Source: Rubripirellula sp. (GTDB lineage Bacteria > Planctomycetota > Planctomycetia > Pirellulales > Pirellulaceae). Taken from it: 64,000 nt of DNA. Under the pieces are notes generated by a model. That model ran no database searches and had not been told where the DNA came from. It saw only the letters and a list, made by a program, of their open reading frames with translations. The stretch spans positions 992,001-1,056,000 of the forward strand of contig OZ244207.1 of NCBI GenBank assembly GCA_965216875.1, given 5' to 3'. A program made the translations under genes and the position numbers. Positions 52,133 through 54,240 of this stretch are shown here, in pieces (within the stretch, counting starts at the first letter, position 1; every line of letters begins with the position of its first letter).

Positions 52133-52173
52133 AACGACAGCTGACTTCAAGCAAACTTGAAAGGAAGAAAGTG

Positions 52174-52722
52174 ATGAACACCATCTCGCCAAAACGGCTC
52201 GCAGACACCAACGCATCGTCGCCCGTTGAGTTGATCGACGTACGGACGCCGGTGGAGTATCGCGAGGTTCATGCAACGCCAGCGCGCAACGTTCCTCTCG
52301 ACACGCTCGATCCTGAGGCGCTGATGGGTGGCCGCAATGGGAATGCCGGTGAGCCGCTTTATGTGATTTGCAAATCGGGCGGTCGCTCGACTCAGGCTTG
52401 CCAAAAGCTGATCGCCGCCGGACATGACAACATCGTCAACGTCGAAGGAGGCACAGACGCATGGGTTGATGCGGGGTTGCCGGTGCAGCGTGGAAAGAAA
52501 GCGATGGCACTGGAGCGGCAGGTACGCATTGCCGCTGGAGCGTTGGTCCTGATTGGCGTCGCACTCTCCTTCTTCAATCCTTACTTCCTGGGCCTCTCCG
52601 CCTTTGTCGGTGCAGGGTTGGTCTTTGCCGGTGTCACAAACACCTGTGGCATGGGAATGCTGCTGGCCAAGATGCCATGGAATCAGGTGAGAGGCTGCGA
52701 CAACGGATCATGCTCGGTTTAG
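52174..52722 (+). CDS. Rhodanese + DUF2892 membrane sulfurtransferase (YgaP-like)
   Basis: LIDVRTP.EY, CKSGGRS active loop, ERQVRIAAG, TCGMG.LLAKMPWN. Confidence 0.92.
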   Translation: MNTISPKRLADTNASSPVELIDVRTPVEYREVHATPARNVPLDTLDPEALMGGRNGNAGEPLYVICKSGGRSTQACQKLIAAGHDNIVNVEGGTDAWVDAGLPVQRGKKAMALERQVRIAAGALVLIGVALSFFNPYFLGLSAFVGAGLVFAGVTNTCGMGMLLAKMPWNQVRGCDNGSCSV

Positions 52723-52926
52723 CCCCGTACTCGTGCTCGTAATCGGCCTGAGCAATTTCGGCCGGATTGATAACGAGTACCGCAATGCTGAGCACGAATT
52801 CGTAGGGTGTGTGCTTGCACGCACCAACACGAGATTGATGCGCGAAAGCACACGAAAGAGAGACGTGAGACGAGTGGACGCGAAGAACCGCTCTGGTATC
52901 GCCGACGCACTCGTCCCACATCGCAG

Positions 52927-53002
52927 TGACCAAGGAGGGAGTCGAACCCCCAAATTCACGAGCCTCTCATGCTCGCCGCTTTGCCGGTTTGCGTACTTGG
53001 TC
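52927..53002 (-). tRNA. Non-canonical tRNA-Leu(GAG) with 7-nt variable region
   Basis: GACCAAG-TA-CGC-AAACCGGCAAA-GCG-G-CGAGC-ATGAGAG-GCTCG-TGAATTT-GGGGG-TTCGACT-CCCTC-CTTGGTC-A; all stems pair. Confidence 0.85.
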
Positions 53003-53030
53003 GCAAGAAGTAGTGTCCTGATGGCGCAAC

Positions 53031-53061
53031 AAAAAAGGCTCGATGCCAGTGACATCGAGCC
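53031..53061 (-). terminator. Intrinsic terminator/attenuator between leader peptide and tRNA
   Basis: GGCTCGATG-7 nt-CATCGAGCC followed by T6. Confidence 0.8.
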
Positions 53062-53089
53062 GCTACGAATTGCATTCGTTTTGCCGATC

Positions 53090-53176
53090 TCACACGGGCC
53101 TATCGCCTCCGCTCTCACCACATGAGAGTGAATCAAGCGAGCAGGAGGTGCAGTTGTATGGATAACGGCTATTCAT
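53090..53176 (-). CDS. Putative leader peptide MNSRYPYNCTSCSLDSLSCGESGGDRPV
   Basis: 28-codon ORF whose stop lies 28 nt before the terminator stem. Confidence 0.45.
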   Translation of the reverse strand: MNSRYPYNCTSCSLDSLSCGESGGDRPV

Positions 53177-53252
53177 GATTCAATGCGATTCTTGGGGGTC
53201 TGTTGAAAGGTAAAGACAATCGCCCCTCGCGAAGGTTCACGCATAAAAGCAG

Positions 53253-53316
53253 CGTAGGGTGTGTGCTTGCACGCACCGATCGCGTGACATTGGTGCGTGC
53301 ACGCACACACCCTACG
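53253..53316. repeat. Inverted REP doublet, family D (single copy also at 52801-52825)
   Basis: CGTAGGGTGTGTGCTTGCACGCACC and its reverse complement. Confidence 0.8.
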
Positions 53317-53340
53317 AAAGAACGCCTGGACAATTATCCG

Positions 53341-54240
53341 TCAAACGCGGATGGCGACGCGCAGTTTGGCGCTTCGCGAGCGTGGGTTCTCGGCGACTTC
53401 GCGATCGCTCGGTCGAAGCGGTTTCTTGGTCATCACTTGCCAGCGTTCATCGTCGCTAAATGCATTCTTGACGATGCGGTCTTCGAGCGAATGAAAACTG
53501 ATCACCGCAACGCGGGCACCGCTTGAAAGCCAATCGGGCGCCGACTTGAGTGTGCGTTGCAGGATATCAAGTTCTTCATTCACCTTGATTCGCAGCGCTT
53601 GAAAGGTACGCGTTGCCGGGTGAATGTCATGATTCTTGCTGCGTGGAACACAGCGTCGGCAAATGTCGACCAAGTCGTTGACCGTTCGCACCGGACTTTC
53701 GTTACGCCGCTGGGCAACGATTTCGCGGGCGATCCGGCGACTGTAGCGTTCTTCGCCATATTGATAGATCACGTCGGCGATCGCTTGCTCTTTGTTCCAG
53801 GCGAGCCAATCAGCAGCACTGCAACCATTGTCGGGATCAAACCGCAAGTCGAGCGGGCCATCTTCGGTGAAACTAAACCCACGCGAGCGATCGGCAAGCT
53901 GATCACTCGAAAGGCCGAGATCCAGCACGAGTGCGTCGGCCGCTTCCAGCTCTGTCGCCGCCAACGCTCGCGGTGCCGCTTCGTAGCTTCCCAAGAAAAG
54001 GCTGAGTCTCGGGTCGTGTGTTTCGGTCTCGAAACGCTCGGTGACGGCGGGATCGCGATCGAGCGCAATCAAGTGCTTGAGGTGATCGCCCAGTGTGTCG
54101 ATCAGTCGTTTCGAATGTCCGCCGCCGCCGTAGGTGCCGTCGACGACGATTTTGGGCAGGGCGATGCCATCACCAATGTCTTCCGCGACCCAATGAACGA
54201 TTTCATCGGGCATGACCGAAACGTGACAACTTTGTGTCAT
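53341..54240 (-). CDS. rsmH: 16S rRNA m4C1402 methyltransferase
   Basis: HVSVM, DGTYGGGGHS, DLGLSSDQL, HPATRTFQALRI, NPRSRSAKLR. Confidence 0.96.
   Translation of the reverse strand: MTQSCHVSVMPDEIVHWVAEDIGDGIALPKIVVDGTYGGGGHSKRLIDTLGDHLKHLIALDRDPAVTERFETETHDPRLSLFLGSYEAAPRALAATELEAADALVLDLGLSSDQLADRSRGFSFTEDGPLDLRFDPDNGCSAADWLAWNKEQAIADVIYQYGEERYSRRIAREIVAQRRNESPVRTVNDLVDICRRCVPRSKNHDIHPATRTFQALRIKVNEELDILQRTLKSAPDWLSSGARVAVISFHSLEDRIVKNAFSDDERWQVMTKKPLRPSDREVAENPRSRSAKLRVAIRV

Follow-up and report, generated by a model that had tools for sequence, protein, structure and literature searches.

A one-tRNA unit in Rubripirellula as a putative ribosome-mediated attenuator related to the heads of tRNA arrays in Pirellulales

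How is a tRNA gene expressed that stands alone behind a short open reading frame and a hairpin followed by a run of T? Such a gene is found in the stretch of DNA analysed here, 64,000 nucleotides of contig OZ244207.1 from Rubripirellula sp. (positions 992,001 to 1,056,000), which we call the window; coordinates count from its first letter unless another genome, locus or genome position is named. An earlier note, made from the letters alone, had read the unit as a minimal attenuation-controlled module in which stalling of the ribosome on a leader peptide permits read-through and releases a rescue tRNA. We asked whether its parts can be recognised, whether they occur together elsewhere, and what they might do in concert. 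The features of the unit and its surroundings are as follows.

53238-53214, minus strand: promoter-like motif GAACC-N16-GTCT (from the sequence)
53176-53090, minus strand: leader ORF with ATG start, 28 codons and TGA, peptide MNSRYPYNCTSCSLDSLSCGESGGDRPV (from the ORF list)
53093-53083, minus strand: 5' strand of the predicted antiterminator (region 2), overlapping the stop codon at 53092-53090 (from the fold of the nascent transcript)
53079-53065, minus strand: small linker hairpin ACGAAT-GCA-ATTCGT between region 2 and the terminator (from folds)
53061-53037, minus strand: terminator hairpin of 11 pairs with a 3-nt loop (from a terminator scan and fold)
53060-53049, minus strand: region 3, the 5' arm and loop of the terminator hairpin (from the fold)
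53036-53031, minus strand: T6 tract of the terminator (from the sequence and the terminator scan)
53002-52927, minus strand: tRNA with anticodon GAG (Leu codons CUC/CUU), short variable region, A73 and no encoded CCA (from Rfam and ARAGORN)
about 52922-52862, minus strand: 3' hairpin with a 15-pair outer stem and a pyrimidine-rich tail (from the fold)
53320-53253: REP-type palindromic repeat 5' of the unit (from BLAST against the genome)
52853-52799: REP-type repeat 3' of the unit (from BLAST against the genome and fold)
54348-53341, minus strand: rsmH (Pfam Methyltransf_5)
52171-52722, plus strand: rhodanese/YgaP-like gene, convergent with the unit

Every part that the earlier note had described is present at or near its proposed place, including the 28-codon frame, the REP copies on both sides, the 15-pair stem with its pyrimidine tail and the cloverleaf, which matches Rfam RF00005 (44.9 bits, E 7.9e-8) and is called by ARAGORN as tRNA-Leu GAG at 52926-53002. 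The hairpin with its T6 tract is there as well, but its stem, given before as 9 bp, has 11 pairs in the terminator scan. The antiterminator is an element beyond that list of parts. The T tract is separated from the tRNA by 28 nt. The stretch with the 3' hairpin, which is possibly the end of the unit, has a fold z of -5.5 over 151 nt, the REP hairpin being included in the same 151 nt. Of the 371 BLAST matches to the genome that we obtained for a 641-nt stretch, most come from a REP family with the core GTGCGTGCAAGCACACACCCTACG.

Neither the promoter motif nor the terminator hairpin exceeds chance when considered on its own. GAACC-N16-GTCT has one match in the window and at least one match in 37 of 100 shuffles; in its strict form it has 54 matches genome-wide, which is about the chance level as we reckon it from the size of the pattern and the length of the genome. 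A generic terminator scan finds 3 sites in 2 kb (2.4 expected), and a sigma-70 promoter scan of 2 kb found none. The combination of the parts is, on the other hand, far from chance.

The genome (8.26 Mb in one contig, with 99 tRNA calls by ARAGORN) holds three dense tRNA arrays, which we number 1 to 3, at 591-595 kb (14 genes), 607-608 kb (3 genes) and 628-633 kb (31 genes). The array stretches (591000-594748, 606699-608012 and 628016-632638) all fall within 42 kb, and each is headed by the same putative attenuator module. A regular expression for the specific terminator hairpin gives three matches in the genome, namely the window unit and the sites before the tRNA-Phe genes that open arrays 2 and 3; in array 1, a related hairpin precedes the first tRNA by about 10 nt. 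The window unit has one tRNA only, with 24 kb between it and the closest other tRNA of the window.

The heads of the arrays were reached through short hairpin matches in an order-wide search. A DNA search with the leader and terminator in 401 genomes of the order gave weak, short matches to the hairpin alone, one of them in the genome of the window, where it precedes the opening tRNA of the 3-gene array by about 100 nt, and the others just 5' of tRNA-Phe genes. With the whole unit as query in 41 relatives, only the tRNA part was matched (10 of the 41 genomes, always in clustered copies), and a tRNA-core pattern, scanned once through genome contigs and once through metagenome contigs, gave array contexts only. 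We aligned 32 heads, 31 from arrays and the window unit, and built from them a covariance model of the module from the stop codon to the terminator. This model has four matches below E 1e-5 in the genome, all of them members of the training set, and the next best has an E value of 0.1; each of the four is directly upstream of a tRNA unit (14, 3, 31 and 1 genes).

Next, we determined how widely the module is distributed. The model matches in 75 of 151 sampled genomes of the order (Pirellulales) with 1-4 copies each, roughly 120 heads in all, counts that are not independent because all heads descend from one mobile element family. Matches are also found in 7 of 150 other genomes of a sample of the phylum, 4 of these 7 in one family of the same class. 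Among five loci of the phylum sample, three have tRNA-Phe arrays 20-37 nt 3' of the module and one has a tRNA-Gly set of four tRNAs about 70 nt 3'; the weakest has no tRNA downstream. Among 24 heads that had not been used for training (the top-scoring, consensus-like matches), a tRNA, mostly tRNA-Phe, follows within 160 nt in 22. A second one-tRNA unit occurs in another genome (G215; L029, contig C1, 1501-1656), with an attenuator head before tRNA-Phe(GAA) and no further tRNA in 1.4 kb downstream.

The search for leader, terminator and tRNA in this order across Planctomycetota, which the earlier note had proposed, thus finds the order at array heads, with the leader frame conserved. Judged by these comparisons, the window unit carries, in front of a single tRNA, a copy of the control module found at the heads of long tRNA arrays in Pirellulales; the minimal one-tRNA unit exists, but its module is not unique to this locus, the unit being the one-tRNA version of a widespread array head. 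According to PMC4758250, an L-array has about 20 or more tRNA genes at 2 or more per kb. The window unit is no L-array in this sense, though its head and its tRNA are homologous to their array counterparts.

The leader is the first of the parts that can be compared among heads. An ATG frame ending at one aligned stop codon is found in 31 of the 32 aligned heads, the window leader included, and the same holds for 22 of the 24 non-training heads, where the aligned stop is TGA. Across the 32 heads the stop codon is TGA in 30, TAA in one and TAG in one. The frame of this stop is open for at least 29 codons in all 32, and the other two frames are open that long in 13 and 10 heads. The conservation of the leader frame, which the earlier note had made a test of its reading, is therefore seen at tRNA-array heads (31/32 and 22/24); it is not seen at the syntenic rsmH loci described below, which hold no leader. 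One head (genome G268; L053, 1453-1535) keeps the TGA motif and has no in-frame ATG ORF ending there: its ATG frame continues for 12 nt to a TAA inside region 2, which could be due to a frameshift or an assembly error.

In the main leader family, the peptide has the form M-x-F-L-R-P-S-S-I-Q-E-R ... P-L-R-L-stop, and all 17 members are in frame despite lengths of 31-48 codons. Thirteen sequences of this family differ at 229, 279 and 441 nucleotides in codon positions 1, 2 and 3, so that third positions are about twice as variable as first and second ones; to judge from its sequences, the leader is under coding-type selection. TTA is the third codon shown in 11 of these 13 leaders and ATA the twelfth in 8 of them (leaders in L075-L097). 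TTA makes up only 2% of the Leu codons in the long ORFs of the genome, and the arrays carry tRNA-Leu(UAA) and tRNA-Ile(UAU), which read the TTA and ATA codons. The conservation of the peptide hints that the nascent chain may sense something in the ribosome, for example a drug or a metabolite.

The leader in the window represents a diverged branch: aligned with the three array-head leaders of the genome it reaches z values of 3.5-4.8 over shuffles, and it shares a D-S-L..S-C-G..G.D stretch with the leader of array 1. We compared codon adaptation with gene windows and found the window leader at the 2.5th percentile, that of array 3 at the 0.4th and those of arrays 1 and 2 at the 15th and 19th; a low codon adaptation is clear only for the window and array 3 leaders. 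The window leader has no regulatory run of Leu codons, with 2 Leu codons in 28, both CUY. A match between the Leu codons of the leader and the tRNA was considered and was not significant: the CUY share of Leu codons is 0.42, and two out of two being CUY has a chance of about 0.18.

We were not able to assign the leader to any described family. Rfam searched with E up to 1 has no family for it, and neither Pfam nor NCBIfam has one for three leader peptides, that of the window among them. For the larger overlapping ORFs (52711-53136 on the minus strand, 52733-53122 and 53203-53523 on the plus strand), Pfam gave nothing above threshold. A protein search with a 44-aa leader found one unnamed predicted protein among 5.8 billion.

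The second comparable part is the stretch from the stop codon to the T tract. The terminator has 97.2% of its cells paired across the 32 heads (29-48% when it is slid) with five pairs changed on both sides, and a run of at least four T follows the hairpin in 31 of 32. Region 2, which reaches from the last sense codon through the stop codon to the ninth base after it, is complementary to the 5' arm and loop of the terminator; in the alignment it occupies columns 24-36, with the stop codon in columns 25-27. The resulting antiterminator helix is paired in 82.7% of cells across the 32 heads (25-43% in slid controls), six of its pairs are changed on both sides (21 cells), and its covariation score was reached in none of 500 shuffles. 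In the 24 non-training heads, which are consensus-like, the helix is 86.5% paired (25-47% when slid) with almost no covariation. Regions 2 and 3 were also considered as half-sites of a DNA operator, and this was ruled out: in a tally of pair types, 66 of the 415 antiterminator cells are G-U pairs, which are mismatches on the other strand. For the same reason the pairing belongs to the RNA of the minus strand and not to a DNA palindrome.

The predicted folds fit an exclusive switch. When the nascent transcript is folded up to the end of the 5' arm, the helix of regions 2 and 3 appears in all 32 heads, with -16 to -26 kcal/mol; in the window, region 2 forms 10 pairs with 53060-53049 at -17.9 kcal/mol. 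With the 3' arm added, the terminator becomes the best fold in 26 of 32 heads and the antiterminator is still best in 6. A linker hairpin of differing sequence appears in the nascent folds of many other heads. On the other hand, no conserved region 1, that is, no hairpin between a region 1 and region 2, was found by RNAalifold in 17 complete leaders, which gave only the terminator and a 5-pair local stem.

We can now state how the unit might work. Transcription would start at the GAACC-N16-GTCT promoter, and the 28-codon leader would be translated while RNA polymerase moves on. The leader stop codon and the nine bases after it could then pair with the 5' arm of the terminator. It is known from toeprinting that a ribosome whose A site is occupied by a stop codon protects about 12 nt, counted from the codon, and this is region 2; a ribosome at the stop codon would hence cover region 2, the terminator would form, and transcription would end at T6, with the tRNA still 28 nt ahead. 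With the leading ribosome delayed or missing, the pairing of regions 2 and 3 would come first, no terminator would form, and polymerase would read on into the tRNA, which would be cut out of the read-through transcript. As no region 1 was found, the module should read through without translation, unlike trp.

This is our main reading, to which we give a probability of about 0.7: the unit is a ribosome-mediated transcription attenuator before a tRNA gene, a one-tRNA copy of the module at the heads of arrays. The conserved leader frame, the position of the stop codon and the covarying antiterminator at array heads lend support to the attenuation that the earlier note had proposed. Any tRNA behind the module would probably be produced only under faltering translation. 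Which way the switch works, and that it responds to translational stress, is what we infer from this arrangement, and a "rescue" role of the tRNA, with read-through under stress, is likewise conjectural.

The promoter motif bears on where transcription begins. GAAC-N16-19-GTC[TA] is found exactly once in the 600-nt upstream region of 24 of the 32 heads, 240-420 nt before the first tRNA, and it is present in 19 of the 24 non-training heads. The motif GAACC-N16-GTCT, which we take to be ECF-like in sequence, was found in the window as the earlier note had placed it. It need not be a stress ECF promoter, since GAACC-N16-19-GTC[TA] also occurs within 200 nt upstream of 15 of the 51 non-array tRNA genes of the genome (for example 195222, 889561, 3751896 and 5930257), where we reckon from base composition that about one would be expected by chance. 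Several of these copies end 12-31 nt before the mature 5' end. The motif looks like, and may be, the usual type of tRNA promoter in this organism.

There are other ways to explain these parts. The leader could be an independent small gene with an ordinary terminator, transcription of the tRNA or array depending on a start of its own or on unregulated leak-through; the two would be neighbours only because one mobile element carries both. With coding-type selection on the leader family, the peptide could well have a function of its own; furthermore, the distance from the terminator to tRNA-Phe is 100-130 nt in arrays 2 and 3, and in array 3 this spacer, 106 nt long, has tandem GCTAAC-type repeats which could carry a promoter. 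We nevertheless regard this explanation as unlikely. In 20 of the 24 new heads the T tract is separated from the first tRNA by 14-82 nt, the distance in the window being 28 nt, and each 600-nt upstream region has at most one promoter-like motif, which is always 5' of the leader. The stop codon keeps a fixed distance to the hairpin, mostly 33-37 nt, and it pairs within a covarying helix formed with the terminator arm, a feature for which a plain terminator would have no use.

To return to the attenuator reading, what kind of tRNA would be controlled? The window tRNA has 76-77 nt with a variable region of about 7 nt, compared with 84-87 nt in the five canonical Leu tRNAs of the genome, among which there is also an 86-nt tRNA-Leu(GAG); the long variable arm of bacterial class II tRNA-Leu is absent. 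Its nearest relatives in its own genome are array genes with the Leu anticodons GAG (77% identical), CAA and UAA. The closest relative in a DNA search of 41 relatives is 92% identical over 60 nt, and compensatory changes between the two preserve the acceptor, anticodon and T stems. We infer that the window tRNA is an intact member of a selected family, because 11 of the 21 pairs of the cloverleaf show compensatory changes among 11 members of the GAG family.

Short "Leu" tRNAs of this kind (GAG, CAA, UAG and UAA; 73-79 nt, with no long variable arm) are met repeatedly in arrays belonging to several families (loci L002-L012, with examples in L012 at 1489-1565, 2270-2344, 2356-2428 and 2537-2611). 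The long arm is kept in 6 of 7 distinct CAG array sequences (83-86 nt; the copy in L006 has 78 nt) and in the Ser and Tyr tRNAs of those arrays. As described in PMC9976931, a 2023 review of tRNA identity, Leu and Ser tRNAs have a long arm everywhere except in animal mitochondria, and the LeuRS of E. coli needs A73, A14, A15-U48, G18G19 and A20a, not the long arm. The window tRNA has A73, a Leu-type AA..GG..A D loop and a U just before the T stem (numbering by eye), and is predicted to be charged with leucine. The short-arm Leu tRNAs bear on substrate recognition by LeuRS and possibly on the evasion of tRNA-targeting nucleases. Other unusual ARAGORN calls in the genome are a tRNA-Pyl(CTA), a tRNA with a four-base anticodon (tttc), two adjacent 88-90-nt tRNA-Pro(CGG) and a tRNA-SeC (genome positions 3282034, 3442059, 5617444-5617650 and 7784436).

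How did the unit come to lie beside rsmH? At the syntenic rsmH loci of two genomes of the same genus (RsmH about 70% identical), an AP-endonuclease-like gene and rsmH are kept, and neither tRNA, leader, hairpin nor the YgaP-like gene is found. No tRNA was found at the rsmH loci of five relatives, and no such hairpin on the rsmH strand in the two same-genus loci scanned. The unit is situated between two REP copies, where synteny with the same-genus genomes breaks. Since the syntenic same-genus loci lack tRNA, leader and hairpin, the window unit is best read as an insertion, and the hairpin as no conserved terminator of rsmH.

Its absence there and its REP flanks also suit a second explanation, in which the remnant of an array head, fused to one tRNA and dropped between REPs, is decaying and has lost both expression and regulation. 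Among the four matches in the genome, the window unit has the lowest covariance score (44.6 bits), its leader is only weakly like those of array heads, and the Rfam score of its tRNA is modest. However, the unit is complete despite its divergence, with all six parts intact: promoter motif, ORF, stop position, 10-pair antiterminator, 11-pair terminator with T6, and full cloverleaf. The ORF keeps its start, its frame and the aligned stop, the stems of the tRNA have been preserved by compensatory changes, and a second one-tRNA unit exists in G215. Decay appears to us slightly less probable still than an independent small gene.

As a possible refutation, the earlier note had named that the hairpin is only the rsmH operon terminator. 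This reading, in which the hairpin and T6 end transcription of the rsmH operon upstream and the 28-codon ORF is a chance frame, is very improbable, for although rsmH ends 280 nt upstream on the same strand with no other terminator-like site between, the hairpin is missing at the two same-genus rsmH loci scanned, the rsmH loci of five relatives have no tRNA, and the same hairpin, leader and motif head three arrays in this genome and arrays in many genomes without rsmH nearby.

Beyond the attenuator reading of this one unit, we lean slightly towards a broader claim, namely that a conserved, unannotated leader peptide with a terminator/antiterminator switch gates supernumerary tRNA arrays across Planctomycetia, so that whole sets of tRNAs, or here one tRNA, would be stress-inducible after initiation. 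The module addresses two questions, how individual bacterial tRNA genes are regulated and why silent spare tRNA arrays spread. If the module works as proposed, the sensor by which an order of bacteria switches on extra tRNAs is the ribosome itself. The one-tRNA unit would be a compact test object for it, measuring about 380 nt and having one RNA as its only product.

Amino-acid operons are known to follow this logic; the new aspect, as far as our literature searches go, is that tRNA genes are the target: at the level of listings, these searches found no paper on a leader-peptide attenuator before tRNA genes. In the attenuators of amino-acid operons (trpL, hisL, leuL, pheL, thrL, ilvL), the position of the ribosome on the leader chooses the fold. 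The window module is like them in having a promoter-proximal short ORF, an intrinsic terminator and an exclusive antiterminator with its 5' strand at the leader stop codon. Unlike them, it would control tRNAs and not enzymes, has no run of codons for a single amino acid and no detected hairpin of regions 1 and 2, and its leader peptide is itself conserved across families. T-boxes, too, are terminator/antiterminator leaders, which sense the charging of tRNA. They bind uncharged tRNA directly, without a leader ORF, and control aminoacyl-tRNA synthetase and amino-acid genes, whereas the module has a leader ORF and matches no Rfam family (E up to 1).

To our knowledge, Anabaena, with promoter repression, is the only studied case of how a silent spare tRNA array is controlled. 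L-arrays have been described before, those of Planctomycetes included (PMC4758250, PMC8421152). The trn operon of Anabaena sp. PCC 7120, as presented in PMC8421152, is a silent array that is induced, via promoter repeats, when translation is impaired, and it has in common with the arrays considered here that they are supernumerary and horizontally spread. The words attenuat-, leader, hairpin and terminator are absent from the main text of PMC8421152. Control of trn, as that paper describes it, is at the level of the promoter, whereas control of the window module appears to come after initiation, in the leader ORF and the terminator switch. Finally, there are drug-responsive attenuators of resistance genes, such as that of mef/mel (PMC4335068) and the tylosin-induced yxjB (PMC6851288), in which, according to these sources, a ribosome that stalls on a short leader of specific sequence lifts the block at a terminator downstream. 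They resemble the putative module in reporting the state of translation and not one amino acid; their output, however, is an efflux or rRNA-methylase protein, and that of the module described here would be an RNA.
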